From positions 242 through 64,241 of the forward strand of contig JAIDUT010000058.1 in NCBI GenBank assembly GCA_029060065.1: a DNA stretch of 64,000 nt, read 5' to 3'. The stretch is from Clostridia bacterium (GTDB lineage: Bacteria; Bacillota; Clostridia; Christensenellales; UBA3700). Below, in pieces: positions 6,546-43,243 of this stretch. Each line of letters begins with the position of its first letter. The first letter of the stretch is position 1. Under the pieces are notes generated by a model, which was not told where the DNA came from, did not search any database, and saw nothing but the letters and a program-made list of their open reading frames with translations. A program made the translations under genes and the position numbers.

Positions 6546-7286
6546 TTATTTGAATTCGTCGTTGTCTTGTGAGAAATCAAAGTCTTCTTTGAAGTCGTCC
6601 ATTTGAATATTACTATCGGCAAAAGCATCGTCATTATTGCTAAAATCCGAATTCAAATCGCCGTCTACTATAACACTGCTGTCGTTTACCGCGCTGTTAG
6701 CTCTCTCTTCTTCAGGGAGCAAGCTCAAATAGAACTTAGCCTTAGCAATTTCCATATAAGGACTAACCCAGAAAGTCAAGATTCCAAAAGTGAGCAAACA
6801 AAGCATGTACCATCCTATAAAGCTGAATTGCAGACAGAACAATCTCCACTTATTACCTTTCATCATCTCGATTGACTTCTTTCTTGCGTCGTTTGCAGAA
6901 ATATTAGGATCGTCAAGCAAAATATAATAACTCATGGAATAAGCAAATGACTTGATAATTCCCGGAACAATAAAAAGTAATGCCCACAACGCTATGAAAA
7001 TTTGATTGGTAATATACAATACCAACGACCTTCCAAAGTCACTAAAGCCGTTGAAAAGCATACCCAAATCAACTTCTTTATCACGAGCAACGTTGAGAGC
7101 AATCTTGGAATAACCTATAGTCAAAGGTCCCATAACGATTAGCATTACGACAGCGCCTACGCCAATATAAGTCAATCCCGATAACGCTCCCCAAATCGCA
7201 TCGAAGATAAGGGATGCGAGTACGCAAACTCCCCATTTGCCTTTTAGGCTTTGCCATGCAGATTTTCTAAAATCTTTTGCCACCAT
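6546..7286 (-). CDS. DUF975-family integral membrane protein with an acidic C-terminal tail
   Basis: The N-terminus FRKSAWQSLKGKWG and the multi-TM layout are typical of DUF975. The tail is Asp-rich. Confidence 0.65.
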   Translation of the reverse strand: MVAKDFRKSAWQSLKGKWGVCVLASLIFDAIWGALSGLTYIGVGAVVMLIVMGPLTIGYSKIALNVARDKEVDLGMLFNGFSDFGRSLVLYITNQIFIALWALLFIVPGIIKSFAYSMSYYILLDDPNISANDARKKSIEMMKGNKWRLFCLQFSFIGWYMLCLLTFGILTFWVSPYMEIAKAKFYLSLLPEEERANSAVNDSSVIVDGDLNSDFSNNDDAFADSNIQMDDFKEDFDFSQDNDEFK

Positions 7287-7436
7287 TTTTACACCTCGTT
7301 TAGTTATATTTTTAACAACTTTATTCTAGCAAACAGTATAACTTATGTCAATATGTTTTTTATGTAATTTTTACAAAAAAATTAGTTTCTTTTTATATTA
7401 TGCACGCGCAATGCAAATCTTGACAACTGTAGAAAT

Positions 7437-7683: not shown

Positions 7684-8358
7684 TTATTTTTCTTTCTCTA
7701 AGACTTGTCTAGCGCATTTTTGTTGAGCTCTCTTTTTATTTTCACCCTCTGCGCTAGCCACAAGATTGCCGTCAATATATAATTCTACCGAAAATATAGG
7801 ACGGTGTTCTTCTCCCGTCTTGCCGTTGTCCTTAAACTCAATAGTATGCCCCGAATACTTTTCGTATAAAGTAGACTTAAAGTCTTTTTTCCAGTTGTCG
7901 TTAGCGACAGATATAAGTTCTTGCAAATCTTTTAGAATAAATTTTCTTGCATTTTCGATACCGCCGTCGAGATATATCGCTCCGCAAATAGCCTCGAACA
8001 CGTCGCTTCTAATATTGTCGCTCAAATCCCCAAAGCCCATTTTGAGATACTTATCGTATCCTCTTTCTTTGACTATTCCTGCCAGCGGAGTAGCTGACAC
8101 TATTGCGCATCTCATCTTCGTCAATCTACCCTCGTCGAAACTGGGGTACGCTTTGCCTAGCTCGTCTGCAATAATAAAATCCAGTATACTGTCGCCCAAA
8201 AATTCCAATTTCTGATAGTTCTCTCCGCCGTGTATATGAGAATACGAGGGGTGCGTCAACGCCCTTTGTAACTTATCTTTATCAACAAACGTATAGCCTA
8301 TCAAAGTTTCTATATCTTGCATTATCCCTCTATGAGTACTTATAATTTCATGCGACAA
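7684..8358 (-). CDS. rnc: Ribonuclease III
   Basis: It carries the RNase III signature LEFLGDSILDFIIADEL and a C-terminal dsRBD (KTGEEHRPIFSVELYIDG...G..KKRAQQ.A). It sits downstream of plsX, as in many Firmicutes. Confidence 0.95.
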   Translation of the reverse strand: MSHEIISTHRGIMQDIETLIGYTFVDKDKLQRALTHPSYSHIHGGENYQKLEFLGDSILDFIIADELGKAYPSFDEGRLTKMRCAIVSATPLAGIVKERGYDKYLKMGFGDLSDNIRSDVFEAICGAIYLDGGIENARKFILKDLQELISVANDNWKKDFKSTLYEKYSGHTIEFKDNGKTGEEHRPIFSVELYIDGNLVASAEGENKKRAQQKCARQVLEKEK

Positions 8359-29687: not shown

Positions 29688-30197
29688 TTACTCAGCGTCG
29701 GTTTCTTCTCCGCTAACGGTTCCGCTACCGACTTCGCCGGAAGATACACCGATTCCCAAAGCGCTGTTGACTTTTTCTTTGTCAAATACCTCAGTATAAC
29801 CGTCAATCCAAACTTCGATTGAATAAAGAAATTTTTCTAGCCTTGACTCCGACGTCCATTGCTCGTAATTTTCTTCATCAAAATCACTTTTGTATCCAAT
29901 AAGAGAGTCGCCTACGTAAAATGCAACGTCATATACGTCATCGCCTGATTCGTCTGTTACTTTGAACGGAATTGCAACAAAGATATAAAGGTGCGTGGTA
30001 CCTTCGTCGTCTGTATAATACTTTTCATATCCGCATCTGCCGGCGATCTCAAAAGACTCGTCATTTATCTCGGCTCTCAATGCTTTTGCGCAATCAACTA
30101 CTTGGTCAAACGGGTCTTTGTTGGTGCAAGCCACACAACCGCAAATAACTGCAAGTAACATAACTACAACAATTAAACTTGTTAAAACCTTTTTCAT
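29688..30197 (-). CDS. Putative lipoprotein
   Basis: An AAGGAGAA RBS precedes the ATG at 30197. MKKVLTSLIVVVMLLAVICGCVAC is a signal peptide with a lipobox. The C-terminal tail is acidic. Confidence 0.7.
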   Translation of the reverse strand: MKKVLTSLIVVVMLLAVICGCVACTNKDPFDQVVDCAKALRAEINDESFEIAGRCGYEKYYTDDEGTTHLYIFVAIPFKVTDESGDDVYDVAFYVGDSLIGYKSDFDEENYEQWTSESRLEKFLYSIEVWIDGYTEVFDKEKVNSALGIGVSSGEVGSGTVSGEETDAE

Positions 30198-30261
30198 CTT
30201 GTTCTCCTTAGTTTTTAATTTTTTTATTATATTACCATATATATAATATATTGTCAACTAT

Positions 30262-30335
30262 TGGAGCAGGTGACGGGAATCGGACCCGCGCTGACGGCTT
30301 GGGAAGCCGTAGTTCTACCATTGAACTACACCTGC
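30262..30335 (-). tRNA. tRNA-Gly (anticodon CCC), CCA-encoded
   Basis: The reverse complement GCAGGTGTAGTTCAATGGTAGAACTACGGCTTCCCAAGCCGTCAGCGCGGGTCCGATTCCCGTCACCTGCTCCA folds as a cloverleaf with anticodon loop TTCCCAA. The T-loop reads TCCGATT, with C at position 55. Confidence 0.9.
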
Positions 30336-30427
30336 AATATAATTAATTACCTCTATAATAGTTCAATAACATTATCTTGTCAAGTCAAAACAAAATTTAT
30401 TACGCGAATATTGCCTCAGAATCTTTT

Positions 30428-31138
30428 CTAATTATTGTTTAATTTATCAAATACGCTTTGCGCCAAAAGTTTGCTTCCTTTGACGTTTGGGTGAACTCCG
30501 TCTGAGAATAACTCTTTTTTTCCATCAAATATTGTATTGACGTCAATACAGTCTACGCCTTTTTCTTGCGCAAGATTTTTTATAGCAGGAACTATTTCGC
30601 TTTCGACGACAGACTTCCTCAAATTATATAATACCTTTCCTCCCACTTCAAATAAAGGCGGTGGCGTAAGAATATATACTTTAGGCGCGCTTTCAAGCGA
30701 TAAATAACTATCTATAATCTCTCCGTAATCATTGACAAATTTATCTCTGTCCCAGTTATTTTCCTTAGTATCGTTCGTCCCAAGAAGGATAACAACAATA
30801 TTCGGCTTAAAATCTAAACTCTGTTTATAGACCTTTTCGTTTACAATGGGAAAATCTCCGCTTTTAATGGCAGTCCTGTTGGTGTAACCGAAATTATTAA
30901 CACAATAATTTTCTCCTAAAAGTCTATTCAGAATTGCCGGATAGTTATTTTTGCGCCGATTTCTGACAAAAAATCCATATGTAATGCTGTCCCCAACGCA
31001 GGCAATGCGAATTTGATTGTCTTTAGCTCTCTTCATAGGATGATAAAAAGATATCATGCCAAAATGATATATTATCAAAATGATTATGCCCGCCAAAACC
31101 AATAAGGCTATTGAAATTATTATTCCTATCATAAACAC
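30428..31138 (-). CDS. SGNH/GDSL-family hydrolase with an N-terminal TM anchor
   Basis: Block I is CVGDSITYG, a GTND block is present, and the DGVHPN catalytic block is near the C-terminus. Confidence 0.85.
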   Translation of the reverse strand: MFMIGIIISIALLVLAGIIILIIYHFGMISFYHPMKRAKDNQIRIACVGDSITYGFFVRNRRKNNYPAILNRLLGENYCVNNFGYTNRTAIKSGDFPIVNEKVYKQSLDFKPNIVVILLGTNDTKENNWDRDKFVNDYGEIIDSYLSLESAPKVYILTPPPLFEVGGKVLYNLRKSVVESEIVPAIKNLAQEKGVDCIDVNTIFDGKKELFSDGVHPNVKGSKLLAQSVFDKLNNN

Positions 31139-31286
31139 CTCTTTTTATTTATTTTAGCACATACATAAAAATATTTACAATAAAAAATACGAACCAATTA
31201 AAAGCGTTGGCGCAACTTGCAAAAAGCTCAAACACTATTACGTATTTGAGCTTTAATGATTGTGGTAACAAAACTACATTTTTGTT

Positions 31287-31556
31287 CTAACCTTCGTAAC
31301 GGTCAAGATTGGCGCGAATTGCTTCAATGAGGCGTTTCTCTGCCGAAGTCTTTTTGTCTTTTGCAACTTTCGTGCAAACAGACGTGCCATAGAGTTTTGC
31401 AAGGTCGTCTACGAGATTCTTAAGATGTACAGTGTCAAGGATGTTTTCCGAACCGCAAAGTTCTTCTCCCATAGATGTTGTTACGGGCGCTTGCGTAGGC
31501 TCTGTTGTTACCGGTACCTCTGTAGGCGTTGCTGTGTTCGTGATGTTCTTTTCCAT
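31287..31556 (-). CDS. Hypothetical small protein
   Basis: An AGGAG RBS is present. The 89-aa product has a Thr/Pro-rich N-terminus. I recognise no motif. Confidence 0.5.
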   Translation of the reverse strand: MEKNITNTATPTEVPVTTEPTQAPVTTSMGEELCGSENILDTVHLKNLVDDLAKLYGTSVCTKVAKDKKTSAEKRLIEAIRANLDRYEG

Positions 31557-31751
31557 AGAAATAATCTCCTATTTTATATATTCTTTGTCCCAACCAACGG
31601 TTGAGTTATTATATAATACGTCTAAATCATCTTAAAAATGCATAATTTTTGCGTAAAATTTTATATTACATGTGCGTTTAATATACGATGTCAATACCTG
31701 TCGTCTATGTCTGCAAACATTATACGCTTACTAAAAATTCATAAATAAGAA

Positions 31752-31830
31752 AAAAGTGAGATGTAATCACCTCACTTTCTATTAATCGCCAAGAGCGACT
31801 TCTTGGCTGTGGCGGAAGCGGAGGGATTCG
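31752..31830. repeat. Duplicate of the tRNA-Ser 3' end (22 nt including CCA) plus its downstream terminator hairpin (att-like scar)
   Basis: The ~79 bp at 31752-31830 match 33187-33266 with a few mismatches. The match stops inside the T-arm at GGGATTCG. Confidence 0.85.
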
Positions 31831-31897
31831 TAAGAAGCGTAGCGACAGAATAACGAGCCCGCGAGCGTAACTATTTCGGCGTCCCGACTCTGAAGCC
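31823..31897. repeat. Imperfect ~75-bp repeat, copy 1 (starts GGGATTCGTAAGAAGCGTAGCGAC)
   Basis: It aligns with 33078-33152 at roughly three quarters identity by eye. It is fused directly to the tRNA-Ser 3' fragment through the shared GGGATTCG. Confidence 0.7.
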
Positions 31898-31966
31898 GTG
31901 TAAAAGACTTGCCTTAGTCAAGAGTCGAGAAAACGTCAGACTTCATTATTCATACTATAGATAAAA

Positions 31967-32683
31967 TCAGCAACTACTTTTATAATCAATATTTGCTAAT
32001 TTTGCTTGCTTACACAAGTCTTTTGTTTGTATTTTATATTGTTTTCCATCTTTTAACGTATAAGTTCCACATTGTCTAAACTCAAAATCAACCTTTTTTC
32101 TCACACATTGTTCTCTAACATCTAATGCCCAGTCGTAATTAAATACTCTTGCATTTATATCAGATTCTCCGCCTACTACGACTAATTCAATATCGTCAAG
32201 ATATTTTTCAATATCTATTTTCTCTAACAATGGTTGCGCTGTAATACATTTATGTTTTATAGGCAAATCCTTAAATATTGATAATTTATAATCTGCATTT
32301 TTTTGATTTTCAACAGTACAACATACAACCACGTTATCATATCCATCATTCCAATCATTTGGAATACAGTTTATAAATCTTTCTATTCTTTTGGTCAGAA
32401 ACAAAAAAGTACAGTCTTGCCGTTCTCTAATCATTTGCCAACATTCATTTCTCCACTCATCTGCTTCTTCAATAAGAAAATCTGTAGAAAAACATAAATA
32501 GACAATTCCCGATTTCATTTTATAATTGCCATTTTTTAATTTTTCTATCGGTTTTTCAAAGTCTTTTGTCTTTATAATGATATTGGTGTTTATATTCCTT
32601 TTTTTATCTCCTTTATGGATATAGCAATGCAAACAACCTTCGCTACATTTTCTACATCCTCGCCACGGATTCCACATTGCCAT
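31967..32683 (-). CDS. DUF5131 (phage Gp37/Gp68) family protein
   Basis: The N-terminus is MAMWNPWRGCRKCSEGCLHCY (the WNPxxGC..S.GC..CY signature). A GGAG RBS precedes the ATG at 32683. Confidence 0.8.
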   Translation of the reverse strand: MAMWNPWRGCRKCSEGCLHCYIHKGDKKRNINTNIIIKTKDFEKPIEKLKNGNYKMKSGIVYLCFSTDFLIEEADEWRNECWQMIRERQDCTFLFLTKRIERFINCIPNDWNDGYDNVVVCCTVENQKNADYKLSIFKDLPIKHKCITAQPLLEKIDIEKYLDDIELVVVGGESDINARVFNYDWALDVREQCVRKKVDFEFRQCGTYTLKDGKQYKIQTKDLCKQAKLANIDYKSSC

Positions 32684-32769
32684 ATCATTTGCTCCCAAAA
32701 TCTTAATTCTTACTAGTTATCTTGAAATTTGTTGATTCATTATACTCACGGATTTATCTAATTTCTAAA

Positions 32770-32976
32770 TCAGTTCTTTACACTTTCATTTTCACCCAGA
32801 ATATTATATTTTTCTGTTGTATCAAGAACCACGTCGCAAAAACCGAGTGCTTCATAAGATTAATATGCCGGAAGATTATTCTCAAAAACACCCAATGATA
32901 CTTTATTTGCTCCATATAGTTAAGATGCAAATTTTAAGACTAAACTGAGCATAGCTTTTCCATATATTCTAATCAT
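32770..32976 (-). pseudogene. GNAT acetyltransferase remnant (N-terminally truncated, two in-frame TAA stops)
   Basis: The minus frame reads GKAMLSLVLKFAS*LYGANKVSLGVFENNLPAY*SYEALGFCDV, which is GNAT motif A/B interrupted by stops. Confidence 0.7.
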
Positions 32977-33077
32977 ATGTTTGTCTCAAAAATTACTTTT
33001 TATCGCACAAATAATTATAGCGTATTTAATAAACAAATGCAAGTGTAAATCCATACGACGCCATATACAAAAGTTAA

Positions 33078-33152
33078 GGGATTCGCAAGGAGCGTAGCGA
33101 CGGAATAGCGAGCTTGCGAGCGTCAATATTTCGATAACCCGATACTGTAACT
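33078..33152. repeat. Imperfect ~75-bp repeat, copy 2 (starts GGGATTCGCAAGGAGCGTAGCGAC)
   Basis: See 31823-31897. Confidence 0.7.
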
Positions 33153-33186
33153 ACAAAAAGAAGTCGCAAAAAAGCTGAGTGATAGA

Positions 33187-33266
33187 AAAAGTGAGGTGCA
33201 AAACACCTCACTTTCTATTACTCGCCAAGAGCGACTTCTTGGCTGTGGCGGAAGCGGAGGGATTCG
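33187..33266. repeat. Terminator hairpin plus tRNA-Ser 3' end (the copy that is part of the intact gene)
   Basis: It matches 31752-31830. Confidence 0.85.
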
Positions 33267-33336
33267 AACCCTCGAGCCGATTACTCGGCTACTTGATTTC
33301 GAGTCAAGCCCGTTATGACCACTTCGATACGCTTCC
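33246..33336 (-). tRNA. tRNA-Ser (anticodon CGA), CCA-encoded, long variable arm
   Basis: The reverse complement is GGAAGCGTATCGAAGTGGTCATAACGGGCTTGACTCGAAATCAAGTAGCCGAGTAATCGGCTCGAGGGTTCGAATCCCTCCGCTTCCGCCA. The anticodon loop is CTCGAAA and the T-loop TTCGAAT. Confidence 0.93.
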
Positions 33337-33623
33337 GTATGGCATTAAGTTTAACGCATAAACTTCTTTTTGGCAAGCGAAATCAACTCATTTTCCAAAA
33401 ATGGCGTAAATTACAAGCTTACAGCTGACAAAATCAAAAATGAAATAATAATTTTACCACCCACTAATTACTTTATTGTACATAAAAACTCATATCATCT
33501 TGTTTTAAACAATATATGTCCTATTTTTTGGACAATTACCGATAATGCAGATTATTTTGACAAATTTTGTATTGATTTAGACATAAATGTATGCTAGACT
33601 TTGATTGTAAGTAAAATTTGGCA

Positions 33624-33697
33624 GAAAAAAAGCCACATCTACCTGTGGCACTTTTTAGTTTAGAATTTATTTTAACTATACCTAGCAATTCGTACTT
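33624..33697 (-). ncRNA. tracrRNA: Predicted tracrRNA (trans-activating CRISPR RNA)
   Basis: The minus strand reads AAGUACGAAUUGCUAGGUAUAGUUAAAAUAAAUUCUAAACUAAAAAGUGCCACAGGUAGAUGUGGCUUUUUUU. AGUACGAAUUGCUAG is a perfect 15-nt complement of repeat positions 12-26, and GUUAAAAU pairs with repeat GUUUUAGU across a bulge. The 3' end is a hairpin followed by U7. A near-consensus promoter lies just upstream. Confidence 0.8.
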
Positions 33698-33699
33698 AC

Positions 33700-33728
33700 A
33701 ATATATCACACATAGGAGTTGTTGTCAA
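33700..33728 (-). promoter_or_regulatory. Candidate tracrRNA promoter (TTGACA, 17 nt, TGnTATATT)
   Basis: On the minus strand the -35 TTGACA is at 33728-33723 and the extended -10 TGaTATATT ends at 33700. The -35 box overlaps the first base of the cas9 ATG. Confidence 0.6.
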
Positions 33729-36700
33729 TGGAAAATGTAAAAAAAATCGGAAATTATTCAATAGGAATAGATATCGGTACTAATAGCGCTGGTTGGGCGG
33801 TGATGAACGATGATTATACTCTCCTTAGAGTAAACCATAAAAATCTATGGGGCGTAAACCTTTTCGACGAAGGTATGCCCGCACAGGATAGACGAGCAAA
33901 GCGTACCGCTCGCAGGCGTCTTGTACGACGCAAACAACGTATCGCTACCCTACGAAAACTAATGGAAAGCGATGTATTAAAAGCCGACGAGTCATTCTTC
34001 ATCAGAATGGACCAAAGTTATTTGCATAAAAACGACGACTTCGGTAGAGAATGTAAATATAATCTTTTCGCGGACAAGCTCTACACTGACAAAGAGTTTT
34101 ACACGCAGTATCCGACGATTTATCATCTAAAAAAGGCATTGTTAGAGAGCTATGAAAAGTTTGATATCCGCCTAGTATATTTGGCAATTCACCACATAAT
34201 AAAATACAGAGGCAACTTCTTGTATGAAGGCGACGCCGAAGGATTCAAGGGTTATGACGTCGAGTATATCAAAAACTGTTTCGACGAATTAGATGACAGC
34301 GCAATATATATTGACAAAATAAACGACGTTGAAAAAATACTTCTTGACGACTCCAAAAAACGTAAAGAAAAAGTAGAAAGCATCAAAAGTTTGTTTAGCT
34401 CTAAAGAAGAACAAGCCTACGCCGAACAATTTGCCAATGCCGTCCTTGGACTAAAGTTTAATCTCGGCGTTGTATTAGGTAACCGTGATGATATAAAGAA
34501 TGAGAACGGCAAACCTTTGACGATTAGTTTTTCTGACGCGAGTTATGAAGAAAAAGCCGATGATTATATCAACCTAGCATCTGACGATGCTCCCCTACTC
34601 GGTGCGCTGTACACACTTTACTATTCTCTAACGTTCAAGGAGATACTCGGCAATAACGACTATATCTCCTATGCTATGTGCGATAAATATGATATACACC
34701 ATAGAGATCTCTATGACATAAAGGGCTTGATGAAGGAATACTGCGACGAGAAATCGTACGCGCAATTCTTCACTTCAAAGGAAAGCAAGGCTAAAGATTA
34801 TATATGCTATTACAATTATATTCATAGAATAAACAAGCTAAAAGCAAATAATAAGACTCCCAACGAAGTCTTTGTCGACGAAATCTTTAAGTTACTTGAA
34901 AAGACGTCGCGAATACAAGAACTTCAAGACGATGAGAGGTATATGCGACTAAAGGCAATTCATCAAAACAATTTGAGGGAGATTTTACCTAAGCTAAACT
35001 CTAAGGTCAATGCGACTATTCCCTATCAAATGAATTATAAAGAGCTAAAAATCATTCTTGAAAAACAAAGTAAGTACTACCCTTCGCTTAAAGAAAACAA
35101 AGATAAGATTATCTCACTGCTGACATTTAGACGTCCATACTACGTAGGCGTACTAAATAAAAATAGTAAATTCAGCTGGTACGACAAGGACATTGACGGC
35201 AAAGTCGAGCCGTGGAATTTTAACGATAAGATTGACCTTGGTTACGCGCAAGAAAGATTTATAGAGAACTTGACTAACAACTGTTCCGTATTCCTTGAAG
35301 AGCCCGTCTTACCGCTCAATTCTTTCCTCTATAGCGAGTATATGGCGCTTGACGAACTCAACAAAATTAAAGTAAATGGCAAACTTCTCTCGCCTTCCGT
35401 CAAAAAACAACTCTTTACGGATTTGTTCTGTTCGGCAAACGCAAAGGCGAAAGTCACCAATAGCGATATCGCAGAATGGTTGAATAAGAATGAAAATCTC
35501 AAGTTGAGCAAGTCGGATATAACAGGTCTCCACGAGGACGACCACTTAGCAAATATCTACAAGCCGTACAGGGATTTTAAGAGAATCTTAGGCGACAATT
35601 TTAGCGAAAAGAATATCCAAGATATTTACGAAGAAATCGTAAAAATACTTACAATATTCGACGTCAATGATAAGCAGACGAGAATGGAAAGAATTGAAAA
35701 GGCGCTCGATAAAGATAAAACTAACGCCGTAAGCCAAAATCAGATTATGGCTCTTGCTAAACTCAACTACAACGGTTGGGGACGGTTCTCCAAAAAGGTA
35801 CTCAACGGAATCTACAGCAAAGAAGATAATCGTCGCACTGTTATCCAAGTAATGAGAGATACCGTTAAAAACTTTATGGAAATTACTGCAACTAAGAACA
35901 GCCCATACGGTTTCTACGAGCAAATGCAACCGCAAAAGCAAGACATCGAGAACTTCTACGCCGATTGCATTGAAAACAGTTACTGCTCGCCTGCCGTAAA
36001 GAAATCCACCAATCAAGCTATAAAACTCATAAAAGAGATTATCAAAATAGTCGGTCATGCTCCATCGGCTGTTTATCTCGAAAGCGCAAGCGGTGAGGAA
36101 TTAAATAAGAAAGGCAAGAGAACAAAATCCAAAGCCGATACCCTCAAAGAACTTTACGACAAAGTAACAAAGTCTGCGCGCGACGAAGATTATGAAAGGA
36201 CTAAGATAGAACTTAAAACTCGCATAGATGACGAAAAGGCAAGAAACGTCAAGTCCAACGAATCTGCCTTCAATAAAGAAAAACTATATCTATACTTCAC
36301 ACAACTTGGCAAATGTATGTACAGTGGCGATTCGCTCGACGTAAGCCAGCTGGATAAGTACGAAGTCGACCATATTATTCCGCAATCTCTCATAAAGGAC
36401 GACAGCAGAGATAATAAGGTACTCGTCAAAAAGATTGAAAACCAAAACAAAACCGATAATCTAACTCTGAGCAAGGACGTCATTGCTAGAATGACCGCCA
36501 CTTGGAAAAAACTGCTCAGGATGAATTTCATCAGCAAGAAAAAGTTTTACGCTCTCACGAGAGAGAATTTTGACGAGAGAGATATAGAGCAATTCATAGA
36601 GCGCCAACTCGTGGAAACTCGACAGACTGTTAAAGTCGTGGGAGATATCGTCAAGTTGCTTCCTGAACTCGATGGTTGCGATGTCGTAAAAGTACCGGCT

Positions 36701-37987
36701 AAATCTTGCAATAACTTAAAATCTGCACTAGGCTACTTCAAGGTAAGAGAGCTCAACGACTATCATCATGCTAAAGACGCGTATATCGCCTGCGTATTCG
36801 GTAGATTTGCGCAAAATACAGTAAGTAAAAACAACGGTGGCTTTAGACAGCTCTATCGCAAAGGCATACAGATGAGCCTTAATGACGGAGGTAGAGGCAA
36901 GTCGCAAAAACTACGCCACGGCTTGGTCGTAAATATGATGAATCTGAGATTCGGCTCTATTCTCAGAACCGCCAACGAAGAGTATGACGAGAAAGGCAAT
37001 CTCTTACGCCAAGAATTGCAAATGCTCTCCCCCGATGGTGAGATAATATGGTCGTCCACGTACCGCGAAAACGTTTTAAGAACACTCAACTACAACGACT
37101 GTCTATTGACAAAAAAGATTGAAGAAGAGGCAAATTCGGATTTCTATGACCAAACAATTTACGGAAAGAATAGCTCTAAGTCTAATTTGATTCCACGCAA
37201 AATGGCAGTAAATAAGTTCGGCAAAAAAGTCGACTTACCACCTCAGCAATACGGCGGATATAGTTCTATTAGTTCCGCGTACGCTATAGCAATAGAATAC
37301 AAAAAAGGTAAAAAATACGAGAGAAAAATTGTCAATATTCCTCTCCTCAACGTATATAAAAATAACGTCGACGAGTACCTAAAGCACAACTACGGCGAGT
37401 ACACCGTTCTAAAAGACAAGATATGCAAAAATCAAATGCTTATCTATAAAGGACAACTATGTTACTATATATCGGAGTCGGAACTCAATAACGCTACGCA
37501 AATCAAAGGCAAACAATATTGGCAAGAAGCATTAAGTAAGATTGCAAAAGCTAATGAGAGAAAGACGTGGCTGTGTAAAGATAATATGACGGACGAAGAA
37601 TACACTAAAATAAACAGGCAAATGCGAGCATTCGTAAACGACTTCCTAGACCAACTCGGAAAAAAATATTTTGCGCTCTACAACGATATAGCAAAAAATA
37701 TAAAGGAAGGCTTCGTCGATAAAGGAGGCTTTGATGCATTGTCTTTTGAGCTTAAGCAATCGTTTATATTTGAATTACTGAAGATTACATCTACAGCGGG
37801 CAGGACAGATAAACTCAAAGATTATATAGTTACCGTTGACGGCGAGACTCTTACGATTAAAGGGGCGAGTTTAGGCAGGCTTACCCAAAAACTCAACCTT
37901 GACGATATAACTTTCGTCAACCGTTCTATTACCGGGTTCTGGGAAAAGAAAATTCCCGCTAGCCAGCTCCGAAAGGATAAGAAATAA
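33728..37987 (+). CDS. cas9: CRISPR-associated endonuclease Cas9 (type II-A), 1419 aa from the ATG at 33728
   Basis: RuvC-I is IGIDIGTNSAGWAV (Asp codon at 33770-33772). The Arg-rich bridge helix is RRAKRTARRRLVRRKQRI. RuvC-II is VYLESA (Glu at 36080-36082). HNH is YEVDHIIPQS...DNKVLV (His at 36371-36373). RuvC-III is NDYHHAKDAYI (36764-36778). An AGGAG RBS lies 9 nt upstream. Confidence 0.97.
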   Translation: MENVKKIGNYSIGIDIGTNSAGWAVMNDDYTLLRVNHKNLWGVNLFDEGMPAQDRRAKRTARRRLVRRKQRIATLRKLMESDVLKADESFFIRMDQSYLHKNDDFGRECKYNLFADKLYTDKEFYTQYPTIYHLKKALLESYEKFDIRLVYLAIHHIIKYRGNFLYEGDAEGFKGYDVEYIKNCFDELDDSAIYIDKINDVEKILLDDSKKRKEKVESIKSLFSSKEEQAYAEQFANAVLGLKFNLGVVLGNRDDIKNENGKPLTISFSDASYEEKADDYINLASDDAPLLGALYTLYYSLTFKEILGNNDYISYAMCDKYDIHHRDLYDIKGLMKEYCDEKSYAQFFTSKESKAKDYICYYNYIHRINKLKANNKTPNEVFVDEIFKLLEKTSRIQELQDDERYMRLKAIHQNNLREILPKLNSKVNATIPYQMNYKELKIILEKQSKYYPSLKENKDKIISLLTFRRPYYVGVLNKNSKFSWYDKDIDGKVEPWNFNDKIDLGYAQERFIENLTNNCSVFLEEPVLPLNSFLYSEYMALDELNKIKVNGKLLSPSVKKQLFTDLFCSANAKAKVTNSDIAEWLNKNENLKLSKSDITGLHEDDHLANIYKPYRDFKRILGDNFSEKNIQDIYEEIVKILTIFDVNDKQTRMERIEKALDKDKTNAVSQNQIMALAKLNYNGWGRFSKKVLNGIYSKEDNRRTVIQVMRDTVKNFMEITATKNSPYGFYEQMQPQKQDIENFYADCIENSYCSPAVKKSTNQAIKLIKEIIKIVGHAPSAVYLESASGEELNKKGKRTKSKADTLKELYDKVTKSARDEDYERTKIELKTRIDDEKARNVKSNESAFNKEKLYLYFTQLGKCMYSGDSLDVSQLDKYEVDHIIPQSLIKDDSRDNKVLVKKIENQNKTDNLTLSKDVIARMTATWKKLLRMNFISKKKFYALTRENFDERDIEQFIERQLVETRQTVKVVGDIVKLLPELDGCDVVKVPAKSCNNLKSALGYFKVRELNDYHHAKDAYIACVFGRFAQNTVSKNNGGFRQLYRKGIQMSLNDGGRGKSQKLRHGLVVNMMNLRFGSILRTANEEYDEKGNLLRQELQMLSPDGEIIWSSTYRENVLRTLNYNDCLLTKKIEEEANSDFYDQTIYGKNSSKSNLIPRKMAVNKFGKKVDLPPQQYGGYSSISSAYAIAIEYKKGKKYERKIVNIPLLNVYKNNVDEYLKHNYGEYTVLKDKICKNQMLIYKGQLCYYISESELNNATQIKGKQYWQEALSKIAKANERKTWLCKDNMTDEEYTKINRQMRAFVNDFLDQLGKKYFALYNDIAKNIKEGFVDKGGFDALSFELKQSFIFELLKITSTAGRTDKLKDYIVTVDGETLTIKGASLGRLTQKLNLDDITFVNRSITGFWEKKIPASQLRKDKK

Positions 37988-38856
37988 TGGGTTGGCGTAG
38001 TATAGTAGTCGACTCGCCCAGTAAGATAAGTTTTAAGAATAACTATCTTGTAGTCACCGGTAACGATAACAATATGATTCATATTTCCGAAATAGATATG
38101 CTAATGGTCTCGACTACCCAAGCCACTATGACTGCGCACGCTCTATGTGAACTTAATAAAGCAAAGATACGAATAGTGTTCTGCGATGAAAAGCGTAATC
38201 CGTACGGCGAAATTGTAGGATACTATGGCTGTCATAATACAAGCAAAAAGATAGCTATGCAACTAAAATGGGAGGAGCAAGGAAAAGAAAAGATATTTAC
38301 TCAAATTATACGGCAAAAGATTGTCAATCAAGCCACATTGCTTGCAAAAGTAGGTAAACACACCGAAAGTTTATTACTCAAAAATTACGCCAACGAACTG
38401 CTACAAGGTGACGTAACCAATCGCGAGGGCTTTGCCGCTAAGGTATACTTCAACGCTTTGTTTGGCAAAGACTTCTCTCGCCAAATATTTAGCGATACCA
38501 ACTCAGCGCTTGACTATGGATATACTATTCTACTATCAGCGATAAACCGCGCCGTAATCAACTGCGGTTGCATCACGCAACTTGGTCTCAAGCATAGCAA
38601 TGAGTATAACTTCTTCAACCTCTCTTGCGATATAATAGAACCGTTTAGAGTGGCGGTCGACGAATACGTGTATGAAAATGTCGGACGTGTACTCGACAAA
38701 GATTACAAATTCGAGCTTGTCGATTTGCTCAATAAACAAGTCGTATTAAACGGCGAAAATATTTCTCTAGTAATGGCAATAAAGCAAGTGACTAAGGAAG
38801 TGATAGACCATCTGAATTGCCAAGTGTACGAAGGAATCAAACTCTATGAGATATAG
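37987..38856 (+). CDS. cas1: CRISPR-associated endonuclease Cas1 (type II)
   Basis: At 289 aa it has MGWRSIVV...SKISFKNNYLVV, typical of II-A Cas1, plus NSALDYGYTIL and EPFR motifs. The TAATG overlap couples it to the cas9 stop. Confidence 0.95.
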   Translation: MGWRSIVVDSPSKISFKNNYLVVTGNDNNMIHISEIDMLMVSTTQATMTAHALCELNKAKIRIVFCDEKRNPYGEIVGYYGCHNTSKKIAMQLKWEEQGKEKIFTQIIRQKIVNQATLLAKVGKHTESLLLKNYANELLQGDVTNREGFAAKVYFNALFGKDFSRQIFSDTNSALDYGYTILLSAINRAVINCGCITQLGLKHSNEYNFFNLSCDIIEPFRVAVDEYVYENVGRVLDKDYKFELVDLLNKQVVLNGENISLVMAIKQVTKEVIDHLNCQVYEGIKLYEI

Positions 38857-39166
38857 ATATATGAGAATGTTGTTGTTTTTTGACTTACCTACCGATACTT
38901 TTAAGCAAAAACGGGATTATCGATTATTCCGTAAGGCGCTTATAAATGACGGCTTCTATATGCTACAAGAATCCGTCTACTGCAAAATGGTAATAAACAG
39001 GTCAAACGCCGATTTAACAAAAGCTCGAGTCAAAAAGATATGCCCCATCGAAGGCAACGTAATGTGGCTTTGCATAACTGAAAAACAGTTTGCATCAATA
39101 GAACTACTGTGCGGTAGTTTTGATTCAAAGGTTATATCTAGCGAGGATAGACTAATTATACTATGA
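38846..39166 (+). CDS. cas2: CRISPR-associated endoribonuclease Cas2
   Basis: MRYRYMRMLLFFDLPTDT closely parallels the S. pyogenes Cas2 N-terminus as I recall it. The length is 106 aa. It overlaps the cas1 end by 11 nt. Confidence 0.93.
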   Translation: MRYRYMRMLLFFDLPTDTFKQKRDYRLFRKALINDGFYMLQESVYCKMVINRSNADLTKARVKKICPIEGNVMWLCITEKQFASIELLCGSFDSKVISSEDRLIIL

Positions 39167-39840
39167 CGATACGACTGTTTTGCTCAGATTATCAATTAGA
39201 CATACTAGACGACGAAGTGGCTACTTTGGAAGTACTCAACCGAGACTGCTTTCGTAGAATAATCAATGAACTCAAGGGAACCGGTACGCAAGAAATAAGA
39301 GAAATCAATTTGTTCAATGATAATTCTTTTATAGATACAAAAGATATGACAATTATCTTTGACCCGTACGAAGTGGACGTCAATGATAAAACTTATCTTT
39401 CTAGACTCTACAAAGAAATTGAAAAACATTTCAAGCAATCTGATGACAATATATTTTCACTCAATGAACTGAGCGCATATATAAATTTGCACTTTCACAA
39501 CTTAATATTTGGATACCCATTAGAATTGACGATGAAAGATGAACTTGCATTAAAAGATTATTTGAAGTTTTTGGACGTTAAAGTAGCTGAGGAAGATCAA
39601 TCTTTACTAGATAGAATTATTCAGTTCATTAACGTAAACGGCGTAATTAAATTTACCAAAGTCATTGTATTCGTCAACTTAAAGTCTATGCTTACTCAAG
39701 TAGATATAGACAGCGTAATTCAATCTGCAATACGCACTCGCTGTCCTTTGCTCTTGCTTGAAAACGTATCAGACAATCGAGTTTTCCCAAGTGAGCGTAA
39801 ACTTATAGTTGACGAAGAGTTATTCACTGTAGTAAAATAA
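39163..39840 (+). CDS. csn2: Csn2 (type II-A signature adaptation protein, short ~220-aa form)
   Basis: At 225 aa it sits between cas2 and the array. The C-terminal half (VIVFVNLKSMLTQVDIDSV...PLLLLEN...LIVDEELF) parallels S. pyogenes Csn2. An ATGA overlap couples it to cas2. Confidence 0.85.
   Translation: MTIRLFCSDYQLDILDDEVATLEVLNRDCFRRIINELKGTGTQEIREINLFNDNSFIDTKDMTIIFDPYEVDVNDKTYLSRLYKEIEKHFKQSDDNIFSLNELSAYINLHFHNLIFGYPLELTMKDELALKDYLKFLDVKVAEEDQSLLDRIIQFINVNGVIKFTKVIVFVNLKSMLTQVDIDSVIQSAIRTRCPLLLLENVSDNRVFPSERKLIVDEELFTVVK
39809..39838 (+). promoter_or_regulatory. Candidate pre-crRNA promoter in the csn2 3' end
   Basis: TTGACG at 39809-39814, an 18-nt spacer, then TAAAAT at 39833-39838. 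The predicted transcription start is ~40 nt upstream of repeat 1. Confidence 0.45.
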
Positions 39841-39886
39841 AATTACGGATTAATAGACCTATTCCTTTTATTTTTATCAATTTGAG
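39841..39886 (+). promoter_or_regulatory. CRISPR leader (46 nt, AT-rich, ends ATTTGAG next to repeat 1)
   Basis: The sequence is AATTACGGATTAATAGACCTATTCCTTTTATTTTTATCAATTTGAG, immediately followed by GTTTTAG. Confidence 0.7.
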
Positions 39887-40447
39887 GTTTTAGTACTCTA
39901 GCAATTCGTACTATTAAACAACTTATGTTTGGTATAATTTCTCCACTAATTTGTTTTAGTACTCTAGCAATTCGTACTATTAAACAACGGGACAAAGGCA
40001 ACCACACCGCGGGCGACTGTTTTAGTACTCTAGCAATTCGTACTATTAAACAACTAAAAAAAAAGTATCGGAACAAGAGAAAAGGTTTTAGTACTCTAGC
40101 AATTCGTACTATTAAACAACTTAACATTTTGCGCATACGTGTGACGGTTGGTTTTAGTACTCTAGCAATTCGTACTATTAAACAACATCCGCATTTATAC
40201 TTGGACATTATAAAGTGTTTTAGTACTCTAGCAATTCGTACTATTAAACAACTCTTTATTATTTCTATATACTGCATCAATCGTTTTAGTACTCTAGCAA
40301 TTCGTACTATTAAACAACGCGTAACGTACAGAACAAACAACCGACTGTGTTTTAGTACTCTAGCAATTCGTACTATTAAACAACTGCCGTTATACGATTT
40401 TCTGAGTTTACTGTGTTTTAGTACTCTAGCAATTCGCTTTTCACAAC
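39887..40447 (+). CRISPR. CRISPR array: 8 identical 36-nt repeats plus 1 degenerate terminal repeat, and 8 unique 30-nt spacers
   Basis: The repeat GTTTTAGTACTCTAGCAATTCGTACTATTAAACAAC starts at 39887, 39953, 40019, 40085, 40151, 40217, 40283 and 40349 (period 66). In the terminal repeat (40415-40447) the first 22 nt are identical and the rest has diverged. Confidence 0.98.
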
Positions 40448-40879
40448 GCACTAAACCGTTTGGCGCTCAAACGCTCAAAATAAAATATGAGCCATTCGGT
40501 TAAAACTCTTAGCAGGGCAATACCGAAAGTAAGTAATCAGTCGTAATACTTTATTACATACAGTTTAACGCATTTTTTGAACAGTTTGCGAAGTTGGTTA
40601 AAAAAAGGCACTCAAGGAAATGACGGCAACGGAAGCGATATTGCGAACGATGCAGGAATTAGCGGATAACTGCGAAACGCTTGAAGAATTCCGCAAAGCC
40701 CTTGCAAAGATAATCAAACAAGGCATAAAAGAAACCGCCCACGCGTTGAGAGTCTAGACGGTTTGGGGGGTCGAGGGGCAACGCTTGTCGTCCCTCTGAC
40801 TTTTCTTTATTATACGGCAAGCAAATATAAAGTCAATAATTGGATGATATAAGATGAAAAGAAATGAACTAATGACCTC

Positions 40880-40908
40880 TTGAACTTTCAAGCAAGATTT
40901 GATAAAAT
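40880..40908 (+). promoter_or_regulatory. Candidate promoter for the small Cys-rich ORF
   Basis: TTGAAC, a 17-nt spacer, then TAAAAT. Confidence 0.4.
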
Positions 40909-40952
40909 GAGTAAAAGAAACATTGGAAACCAAACAAAGGAGATATAAAATT

Positions 40953-41078
40953 ATGAACTATTTTAATTGTAGTAGGTGTCCCTACTGTCAACCTACTAAA
41001 GACTATATGATGTGTTACTGCACTTATTGGAGCAAAATTGTTTATAGAACAGACGGTTGCGCAAGAGATGAAGATTAA
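40953..41078 (+). CDS. Candidate 41-aa Cys-rich small protein (MNYFNCSRCPYCQPTKDYMMCYCTYWSKIVYRTDGCARDED)
   Basis: An AAAGGAG RBS lies 8 nt upstream of the ATG, a promoter-like element is 45 nt upstream, and a bidirectional terminator is downstream. It is below the ORF-track length cutoff. 7 of the 41 residues are Cys. Confidence 0.4.
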   Translation: MNYFNCSRCPYCQPTKDYMMCYCTYWSKIVYRTDGCARDED

Positions 41079-41144
41079 AAAGTATTCTTTTATGTTTATA
41101 AAGTTACGCTTTAATTTATGTAACAAGAAAATAAATACCGAAAA

Positions 41145-41178
41145 AAGTGAAAGCCCCGAAAAATTTCGGGGCTTTTTG
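41145..41178. terminator. Bidirectional Rho-independent terminator (ends the rpsI operon and the plus-strand small ORF)
   Basis: The hairpin GCCCCGAAAAATTTCGGGGC is flanked by an A-run on the left and T5 on the right. Confidence 0.8.
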
Positions 41179-41192
41179 ATTGTTGATTTTGA

Positions 41193-41606
41193 TTATCTCT
41201 TTGAGAATTGCGGAGCTCTTCTTGCTTTCTTGAGACCGTATTTCTTTCTTTCTTTTGCTCTTGGATCTCTTGTCAAGAAACCTGCTTTTTTCAAAGCTGA
41301 CTTTGTTTCTTCATCTGCGAGAACCAATGCTCTTGAGATACCGTGTCTGATTGCGCCTGCTTGACCTGTGAAGCCACCGCCGTGTACGTTGACGATAACG
41401 TCATACTTTGCAGTGCTACCTGTCAATTCAAGCGGTTGACGAACGATAAGTTTAAGAGTGTCTAGACCGAAGTATTCGTCAATACTTCTCTTGTTGATGG
41501 TGATTGCGCCGTTGCCGTCAGGAATAAGTCTAACTCTAGCGATAGCTTTCTTTCTTCTTCCGGTTCCCCAGAACTGAACTTTTTTCTTAGTCTTCTTCGT
41601 AGCCAT
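41193..41606 (-). CDS. rpsI: 30S ribosomal protein S9
   Basis: [14 protein letters not shown] is present and the C-terminus is the canonical PQFSKR. Confidence 0.98.
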
Positions 41607-41622
41607 TTGTCATTACTCCTTC

Positions 41623-42054
41623 TTAAAATTTCAAATCTTCGGGCTTTTGAGCCTGTTGGTTGTGCTCAGCGCCTGCGTAGCAACGCAATTTGGTGAGTTG
41701 CTTTCTTCCGAGCGAATTTTTGGGGAGCATTCCCTTTACGGCGAGCATAACTGCTCTTTCCGGCTTTTCTGCCATTAACTTCTTATATTGAATCTCTTTA
41801 AGACCGCCGATATATCCAGAGTGGTGGATATGCACCTTCTTCTCCAATTTCTTACCGGTCAATCTCACGTTGGCGCAGTTGACGATGATAACATGGTCAC
41901 CGCAATCTACGTTGGGCGTATAAATAGGCTTATTCTTACCTCTGAGAACGTTGGCAACGTTGCTTGCAAGTCTACCGAGTACCATATCGGTTGCGTCAAC
42001 GACGTACCATTTTTCCTTAACGTCTTCAGGTTTTGCCATATATGTCTTATTCAC
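41623..42054 (-). CDS. rplM: 50S ribosomal protein L13
   Basis: [17 protein letters not shown] and HHSGYIGG are L13 motifs. The GTG start has a GGAGGG RBS. Confidence 0.98.
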
Positions 42055-42223
42055 GGATAAAACCCTCCATTGTATTTGTAATAATATTGTTAGGTTGTCA
42101 CGTATCAGAGGGGCTAGTTCTTCAACATAACTTCTTTACCAAGTAATTTTAATAAAAAACTAAATAAATGTCAAATAATTTTCAAAGATTTTTTATATTT
42201 TCTTAAAAAATTACGTTATAAGC

Positions 42224-43243
42224 CTACCAAATAAAATCTTTAGCCACTATCCAAGCAAAATACCCCGCGTACATAACAAGCATAGTGATACCTCCGGCGC
42301 GCTTGAGCTTTTTGTCCTTGGTGAGCAAGATACAAAGGAAAAGCACTATACCAACGACTATAGACATGATATTGTCTATCATAAAGCCCGTTATCCAATT
42401 CGTGTCATAGGCTATTGTCGAAATAAGCGACGACGTCCCGAGAACAAACAGAATATTGAATATATTACTTCCTACAATATTGCCGATTGCCAAGTCTGCT
42501 TCGCCTTTTTTTGCCGCAGTCATAGACGTGACAAGTTCCGGCAACGACGTACCGAACGCAACAATCGTCAAACCTATTAGGCTCTCAGACATACCAAATC
42601 CTGAGGCTATTGTCTGAGCTCCTTTGACTATGGCTTGCGAACCAAGAATTACGAGCGCGATACCCACGGCAAGTTTGCCTAGCATCTTTGCAATCTCAAT
42701 ACTTTTCTTTTGAGGTTTTTCTTCCTCTTGATCTACCTCTTTCTCACTCTCTTGCAAATCTGCAATAGCCGACTTATCTTTCTTGGAAAGAATAATGAGA
42801 TATACGAAAAACGCTATAAAGAACAACCACAAAATCAAGCCGTCTATCCAGCTCAACTGCTTGCCTACTACGCCCAATATCATAAGAACAGAAGAAATAA
42901 CTATTACGAAAGGGATCTCTATATAAAGCGTACTTTTCTTCACTGCAAGCGGTGTAAACAGCGCGCATAGACCTAAAATCAGAAATATATTCATTACGTT
43001 GGAGCCAAGCACGTTGCCAATGGCAAGTCCCGCGCTACCCTTGATCGCCGACGTAATACTTATCGCCGCTTCGGGGGCGCTCGTACCGAACGCAACTATT
43101 GTCAAACCTATTACAATTTGAGGTATGCCGAATTTTTTGGCAATCATTGACGCGCCGTCAACAAACCAATCGGCGCCCTTGATGAGCATGAAAAATCCCA
43201 CTATCAACAATGACGTTTGCGCCGCAATACTCCAAAAATCCAT
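42224..43243 (-). CDS. Calcium/sodium antiporter (CaCA/YrbG family)
   Basis: It has two alpha-repeat motifs, GLTIVAFGTSAPE and GLTIVAFGTSLPE. Confidence 0.9.
   Translation of the reverse strand: MDFWSIAAQTSLLIVGFFMLIKGADWFVDGASMIAKKFGIPQIVIGLTIVAFGTSAPEAAISITSAIKGSAGLAIGNVLGSNVMNIFLILGLCALFTPLAVKKSTLYIEIPFVIVISSVLMILGVVGKQLSWIDGLILWLFFIAFFVYLIILSKKDKSAIADLQESEKEVDQEEEKPQKKSIEIAKMLGKLAVGIALVILGSQAIVKGAQTIASGFGMSESLIGLTIVAFGTSLPELVTSMTAAKKGEADLAIGNIVGSNIFNILFVLGTSSLISTIAYDTNWITGFMIDNIMSIVVGIVLFLCILLTKDKKLKRAGGITMLVMYAGYFAWIVAKDFIW

Follow-up and report, generated by a model that had tools for sequence, protein, structure and literature searches.

Genomic Organization of the Locus

The 64,000-nucleotide stretch of Clostridia bacterium DNA analyzed here (referred to as the window) contains a type II-A CRISPR–Cas locus. 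The region of interest is the short sequence in front of its cas9 gene, where a gene for the trans-activating CRISPR RNA (tracrRNA) is predicted to lie head-on to cas9. The cas9 gene (33728–37987, plus strand) starts with an ATG at 33728–33730 and encodes 1419 amino acids (TIGR01865, 737 bits). It is followed on the same strand by the adaptation module of a type II-A system, comprising cas1 (37987–38856), cas2 (38846–39166), and csn2 (39163–39840), and by a CRISPR array (39887–40447, plus strand) with nine repeats of the sequence GTTTTAGTACTCTAGCAATTCGTACTATTAAACAAC. The matches of cas9, cas1, cas2, and csn2 to TIGR01865, TIGR03639, TIGR01573, and TIGR01866, respectively, all exceed the NCBIfam cut-offs, which identifies a type II locus. 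The array leader terminates in ATTTGAG and the final repeat is degenerate, which indicates that the CRISPR RNA (crRNA) is produced from the plus strand. The solved structures nearest to the window Cas9 are 9vj8, FrCas9 (9jwk, the second-best match), and SpCas9.

On the other side of cas9, an intergenic region of 391 nucleotides (nt) extends to a tRNA-Ser(CGA) gene (33246–33336, minus strand) that abuts the CRISPR-cas module. This tRNA gene and the nearest real genes upstream of cas9 are all located on the minus strand, with no gene on the plus strand, and the cas9 promoter must therefore lie within 33337–33727. Two intergenic open reading frames (33370–33597, plus strand, and 33536–33709, minus strand) were dismissed as genes; they have no match in Pfam or to any family and are not conserved.

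A tracrRNA Gene Whose Promoter Overlaps the cas9 Start

The highest-ranking promoter-like site in a consensus scan of 33100–34100 points away from cas9 (33700–33728, minus strand). It consists of TTGACA (33728–33723), a 17-nt spacer, and the extended −10 element TGaTATATT (33708–33700), matching the consensus at 11 of 12 positions in addition to the upstream TG. Transcription from this site is predicted to start at about 33693–33696 and to yield an RNA of approximately 69–72 nt (33625–33696, minus strand). The RNA would comprise an anti-repeat (33696–33669) that begins seven nt downstream of the −10 element, a nexus-like segment (AAAAUAAAUUCUAAACU), a terminator hairpin (33649–33632), and a U7 tail (33631–33625). 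Against the CRISPR repeat, the anti-repeat forms a 6-base-pair (bp) lower stem and a bulge, followed by 15/15 identity with repeat positions 12–26; co-folding of repeat and tracrRNA gives −40.1 kcal/mol, with z = −8.3 relative to shuffled repeats. With its anti-repeat, its locus context, its own promoter, and a Rho-independent terminator, the predicted transcript has the features of a type II-A tracrRNA. No Rfam tracrRNA family, nor any other relevant family, matched within 30000–43000 at E ≤ 1. This miss does not disqualify the assignment, since tracrRNAs have no conserved sequence or structure and such misses are usual outside streptococci (PMC3737331).

The promoter of this gene and the translation start of cas9 occupy the same DNA. 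The cas9 ATG contributes its A (33728) to the −35 element, and the spacer (33722–33706) covers the cas9 Shine-Dalgarno sequence AGGAG (33714–33718, plus strand), which is located 9 nt before the ATG; both overlaps had been proposed in the initial annotation and are read directly in the sequence. Only 32–35 nt lie between the tracrRNA start and the cas9 ATG, and these are filled by the tracrRNA core promoter. Given this lack of free space and the absence of an upstream plus-strand gene, the further proposal that the cas9 promoter must be located within the tracrRNA gene or past it is borne out as well. A conserved leader fold that would hide the Shine-Dalgarno sequence was considered and rejected: when the window sequence is folded singly, UAGCAAUUC pairs with GAGUUGUUG, with z of only −0.95, and RNAalifold applied to five lineages returned nothing.

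To place the window among its relatives, nine lineages were compared, namely the window and eight further ones with cas9-upstream DNA, collected by genome-contig and protein searches. Cas9 identity to the window is 74% for L001, 61% for L088, 57% for L089 and for L090–92, 41% for L094 and L095, 40% for L097, and 39% for L096; a scan of Joint Genome Institute (JGI) metagenomes with the Cas9 N-terminus added no relatives. The tracrRNA promoter, written as TTGACA-17-TGnTAnnnT, is present in all nine lineages, and the five close ones share its octamer TGTCAATG without change. The first base of TTGACA falls at the cas9 ATG in five lineages and 2 nt before it in four, and purine-rich equivalents of the Shine-Dalgarno sequence occupy the same position in the relatives. 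The anti-repeat covaries with the CRISPR repeat of its own locus (window, CTAGCAATTCGTACT; L088/L089, CTCTAACAATTCGTA; L091, CTCTATCATTTCT; L097, GATGCCAAATCAAATGGT), the repeats of the relatives having been read at contig ends. The terminator stem also covaries among relatives (GCCACA, GCCGC, or GCCCC). The conservation and covariation of promoter, anti-repeat, and terminator stem argue that both the tracrRNA gene and the way it overlaps the start of cas9 are real and under selection. Two called cas9 starts, in L096 (401) and L090 (2179), are probably placed too far upstream; the aligned start, which has a proper Shine-Dalgarno sequence, lies further downstream, by 30 nt in L096 and by 6 nt in L090.

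A wider survey covered 42 further type II-A loci, mostly from Clostridia, whose Cas9 proteins are approximately 30–35% identical to that of the window and which carry, upstream of cas9, an anti-repeat on the opposite strand. In these 42 loci the anti-repeat is followed by a near-consensus tracrRNA promoter, whose −35 element lies no more than 31 nt from the cas9 ATG in 30 of them and no more than 47 nt in 34. At such distances there is no room for a separate cas9 promoter and leader. L022 and L023 carry an identical overlap, AGTCAATG. More generally, the compact nested layout thus appears to be a common design in this Cas9 clade and not a peculiarity of the window.

In L095, cas9 is followed only by a 125-amino-acid Csn2 fragment (6941–7318), and no cas1 or cas2 was called, yet this locus, with a Cas9 41% identical to that of the window, retains the tracrRNA, both promoters, and the palindrome described below; it appears to be a decaying or adaptation-less locus. 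Full-length Cas9 homologues of about 30% identity, together with GTTTGAGA-type arrays, were also found on contigs labelled as gut archaea: the complete chromosome of Methanimicrococcus hongohii Hf6 (L040), a Methanomethylophilaceae metagenome-assembled genome (L071), and a Thermoplasmata metagenome-assembled genome (L076). Type II systems are rare in archaea, and these loci may reflect transfer from Firmicutes.

A Probable cas9 Promoter Beyond the tracrRNA Gene

Just past the tracrRNA terminator, a plus-strand promoter-like sequence faces cas9 (33572–33600), with TTGATT at 33572–77, a 17-nt spacer, and the extended −10 element TGcTAGACT at 33592–33600. It is the probable promoter of the cas9 operon, with a predicted transcription start at about 33607–33610. 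The initial annotation had noticed the same TTGATT-17-TAGACT sequence preceded by TG, placing it at 33574–33602, 2 nt to the right of its true position, and had considered it weak. With a match of 8 of 12 consensus positions plus the TG, the site fell below the threshold of the promoter scanner. Its position and key bases are conserved in nine lineages. The pattern TTGnnn-17/18-TGnTAnnnT occurs just beyond the tracrRNA terminator in every one of them, over a range of 39–100% Cas9 identity. In the 90-nt stretch of alignment A1 between the palindrome and the terminator, five lineages agree without exception at the eight key positions (TTG, TG, and TA...T), while 18% of the other 82 columns are invariant. 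When the 110 nt upstream of the hairpin were shuffled 200 times, the weighted promoter score of the candidate was reached in only 3 cases (p = 0.015).

The same tendency is seen at greater evolutionary distance. Within the 110 nt beyond the tracrRNA terminator, the better promoter score points toward cas9 in 28 loci and away from it in 10 (39 of the more distant loci; Wilcoxon p = 0.0008), and a shuffle p ≤ 0.05 is reached in 14 loci in the cas9-ward direction versus 3 in the opposite one. Most likely, then, cas9 is transcribed from 33572–33600 through the whole tracrRNA gene in antisense. The predicted 5′ leader, as deduced from the promoter position, would span 33607–33727 (plus strand; approximately 120 nt) and would be antisense to the entire tracrRNA gene and its promoter. 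A 10-mer, ATTGTAAGTA, follows both −10 elements (33604–33613, plus strand; 33702–33693, minus strand); it does not recur in L001 and was treated as a chance occurrence.

A Conserved Palindrome Is Phased to the Probable cas9 Promoter

Upstream of this promoter lies a perfect palindrome, TGTCC-N8-GGACA (33517–33534). It is a candidate operator, and about 80 nt separate its center from the predicted cas9 start. With at most one mismatch, it is found in seven of the nine lineages, and its start is always 77–78 nt before the plus-strand −10 element. Its positions are 2783 in L001, 424 in L088, and 227 in L089, and about −250 from the ATG in L095, L096, and L097. Across the collected loci, the palindrome is enriched approximately 70-fold in the 400 nt upstream of cas9 (7 occurrences in 32 kb versus 2 in 676 kb of other sequence). 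Because the palindrome is phased to the plus-strand promoter, it lends independent support to the notion that this promoter is in use. Two more distant II-A clades also contain the palindrome at other distances (L007, 2748; L069, 2735).

The palindrome probably binds a regulator. A role as the site of a global regulator was rejected: the perfect sequence is unique in the 1.57-Mb genome, and copies with one mismatch are no more numerous than those of a control pattern (28 versus 28), which points to a locus-specific element. No regulator gene is adjacent to it. The conserved block starts at the palindrome, which suggests that the CRISPR-cas module moves as a unit. As to its surroundings, the tRNA-Ser(CGA) gene abuts the module in the window, L001, and L089, while the neighbors are other genes in L088, GAPDH in L090, and PEPCK in L095.

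A Proposed Nested Convergent Pair and Competing Explanations

Taken together, these features make it reasonably probable that the regulatory head of this type II-A locus is a nested convergent pair, in which the leader of the cas9 mRNA is the exact antisense of the tracrRNA. In silico, the two promoters are face-to-face, their predicted starts are about 85–90 bp apart, and the transcribed regions overlap; the tracrRNA terminator is located 15–25 nt downstream of the predicted cas9 start. According to this model, a near-consensus sigma-70 promoter would drive the tracrRNA, which runs leftward over about 70 nt and ends at its own terminator, and the cas9-cas1-cas2-csn2 operon would be transcribed from the weaker extended −10 promoter just past that terminator. 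By analogy with convergent promoters and antisense RNAs in general, the strong tracrRNA promoter would be expected to damp cas9 transcription, through polymerase collision and dislodging of polymerase from the weaker promoter. In addition, abundant tracrRNA could pair with the cas9 leader and form a perfect duplex of about 70 bp, a potential substrate for RNase III, the gene for which is found in the same window (approximately 7693–8310, minus strand; TIGR02191, 179 bits).

A more far-reaching proposal, which is tentative and on present reckoning rather doubtful, is that in compact loci that lack the long tracrRNA form (tracr-L), which make up most of this Firmicute clade, the antisense nesting is itself an autoregulatory device. 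Through pairing of free tracrRNA with the leader and collision of its strong promoter with cas9 transcription, an excess of tracrRNA would lower Cas9; uptake of tracrRNA by pre-crRNA or Cas9 would raise it, and a dedicated regulator of the palindrome would provide a second input.

Several points weigh against the convergent arrangement. Among the nine lineages, the window has the weakest copy of the plus-strand promoter (−10 element TAGACT, 8/12), and two further promoter-like sites exist upstream on the same strand (33425–33452, 10/12; 33529–33558, 9/12). The test of invariant positions was made after the promoter had already been seen, and the phylogenetic relatedness of the compared loci means that counts and p-values overstate their independence. 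All transcription starts, in the window and across the nine lineages, are predictions, and both the interference and the cleavage by RNase III are deduced from general knowledge. Finally, in the window genome the plus-strand hairpin with its five T residues would oppose read-through into cas9.

This last point bears on the rival possibility that the hairpin is a working two-way terminator, or attenuator, that stops most plus-strand transcripts near 33655 and thereby sets cas9 expression. Read on the plus strand, the element (33632–33656) consists of the stem at 33632–33649 followed by ACTTTTT at 33650–56. With A7 (33625–31) on its other side, it is called terminator-like on both strands, in a scan that returned 5 such sites compared to 0.8 ± 0.9 in shuffled sequences. 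The plus-strand hairpin folds with −10.4 kcal/mol (z = −2.9) and is followed by ACUUUUU, and a cas9-ward T-run of at least four is found in 9 of 39 related loci. The pattern noted in the initial annotation is therefore exact, but a conserved two-way design is not observed. None of the four closest relatives (L001, L088, L089, and L090) has the T-run at the stem; on their plus strand, GTCTTACGAC or GTCGAAAGAC comes after the hairpin. These sequences correspond to a second small tracrRNA hairpin (GUCGUAAGAC / GUCUUUCGAC) that lies between nexus and terminator in all four and has been lost in the window, where it leaves an 8-column gap in A1 (window 33650–33656 versus L001 2912–2921). The T5 on the plus strand of the window arose because this small hairpin was deleted. 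In the window, two non-U bases stand between the stem and a run of only five U residues, and an A:U extension of the stem, if formed, would leave no more than AGUUUAG as a tail. Across the 39 loci, the cas9 side of the stem averages 3.7 T residues in the 9 nt that follow it, compared to 7.8 for the tracrRNA side, and 30 of the 39 terminators are one-way. An attenuator that sets cas9 expression is accordingly judged quite unlikely; the two-way appearance is a lineage-specific by-product of the deletion and no designed element of the module, and the site is at most a weak attenuator.

Another explanation, again unlikely but deserving more weight, would dispense with the antisense overlap altogether. 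The tracrRNA promoter could be bidirectional, with a mirror-image −10 hexamer on the plus strand (TACAAT, 33697–33702) overlapping the tracrRNA −10 element and giving rise to a cas9 leader of only about 19 nt from approximately 33709; the upstream promoter would then be minor or serve another purpose. TACAAT matches TATAAT at 5 of 6 positions, all five close lineages retain an A at position 2 and a T at position 6 of a plus-strand hexamer, and the mirror starts (about 33709 on the plus strand and 33693 on the minus strand) are 16–18 bp apart, a spacing that is reportedly typical of symmetric divergent promoters (Warman et al. 2021). However, TACAAT has neither a TG extension nor an acceptable −35 element (AACTAT or TAACTA), and it has degenerated in two relatives, where L089 reads CAATAT or TTCAAT and L090 reads CATCTT. 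Chance alone would be expected to produce a mirror hexamer, given how close to palindromic A/T-rich −10 elements are, and a mirror promoter leaves the conserved, palindrome-phased upstream promoter unexplained. An S. pyogenes-type mechanism, in which a long tracrRNA folds into a natural single-guide RNA under whose guidance Cas9 binds and represses the cas9 promoter, is highly improbable here. It shares with the window only the general resemblance of a tracrRNA beside a cas9 promoter in a type II-A locus. Loci of the tracr-L kind are defined by the long form, a GTTTTA lower-stem mimic, and a match of at least 11 nt to the cas9 promoter next to a protospacer-adjacent motif (PAM) (Workman et al., 10.1101/2020.05.21.102756). 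All three are absent from the window, so that the parallel to S. pyogenes autoregulation drawn in the initial annotation is a loose one. No second minus-strand promoter-like site was found in 33729–34100 (the first 370 nt of cas9), no GTTTTA/GTCTTA mimic in the 300 nt that precede the tracrRNA start, and no match of at least 10 nt between the promoter region and the tracrRNA or its 300-nt upstream stretch. By these features the window locus is of the compact, tracr-L-negative kind, and any autoregulation would have to differ from that of S. pyogenes. In loci without tracr-L, the gap from tracrRNA to cas9 is shorter by about 200 bp (Workman et al., 10.1101/2020.05.21.102756).

Comparison with Known Systems

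The nested convergent arrangement favored here can be compared to several characterized systems. The type II-A tracrRNA/cas9 head of S. pyogenes, reportedly described by Deltcheva in 2011, resembles that of the window in that the tracrRNA gene is upstream of cas9, on the opposite strand, and has its own promoter and terminator. The anti-repeat likewise forms a lower stem, bulge, and upper stem, and the window Cas9 is SpCas9-like. The difference lies in the space available: in S. pyogenes, the cas9 promoter is located between tracrRNA and cas9, and the long tracrRNA guides Cas9 there (10.1101/2020.05.21.102756), whereas the window has no such room and its cas9 promoter is predicted to lie beyond the tracrRNA gene.

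An opposite-strand tracrRNA upstream of cas9 is standard for II-A systems (PMC3737331). In the type II-A locus of Faecalibaculum rodentium, the source of FrCas9, small RNA sequencing (RNA-seq) revealed a 71-nt tracrRNA upstream of cas9 and transcribed opposite to the cas genes (PMC8931148). That work used a simplified locus in E. coli for the RNA-seq and did not address the origin of cas9 transcription or a promoter overlap (PMC8931148). In a preprint on gut metatranscriptomes, stranded RNA-seq signal was reported for tracrRNAs antisense to predicted cas9 mRNA in Lachnospiraceae and Subdoligranulum (Fremin & Bhatt, 10.1101/2020.03.31.018887). These tracrRNAs, "directly upstream of Cas9," represent the same nested situation as in the window, though they were mentioned in passing and without promoter mapping, conservation analysis, or a regulatory proposal. 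Literature searches for explicit accounts of cas9 leaders antisense to tracrRNA turned up only a passing remark, and no study was found that analyzed how the promoters overlap or what follows from it.

Face-to-face convergent promoters subject to transcriptional interference, a subject treated in general terms in PMC5001618, are exemplified by pR/pL of coliphage 186. In the phage, as predicted for the window, less than 100 bp separate a strong promoter from a weak one that faces it, and the transcripts overlap. The window differs in that the terminator of the strong unit lies between the two promoters and in that the short transcript would be a functional guide-RNA scaffold.

Implications

Detailed knowledge of how Cas9 levels are controlled is confined to loci of the S. 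pyogenes type, where a promoter fits between tracrRNA and cas9 and tracr-L is in use. As the window and its relatives show, many natural type II-A loci do not have such room, and transcription of cas9 must either pass through the tracrRNA gene or begin inside it. Judging from the comparisons presented here, the layout seen in the window is a conserved, widespread, and little-discussed variant of the known tracrRNA/cas9 head, and a regulatory effect of the nesting is plausible.

Some consequences are practical. Cassettes intended for native expression of cas9 from such organisms need approximately 250 bp of upstream sequence, so that both the palindrome and the promoter are included. The tracrRNA promoter cannot be mutated without also changing the ribosome-binding site or start region of cas9, and vice versa. 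The conserved palindrome offers a concrete handle toward a regulator. If convergent transcription and pairing between the cas9 leader and the tracrRNA matter in the cell, these loci would represent a second, widespread route by which Cas9 dosage is coupled to guide-RNA supply.

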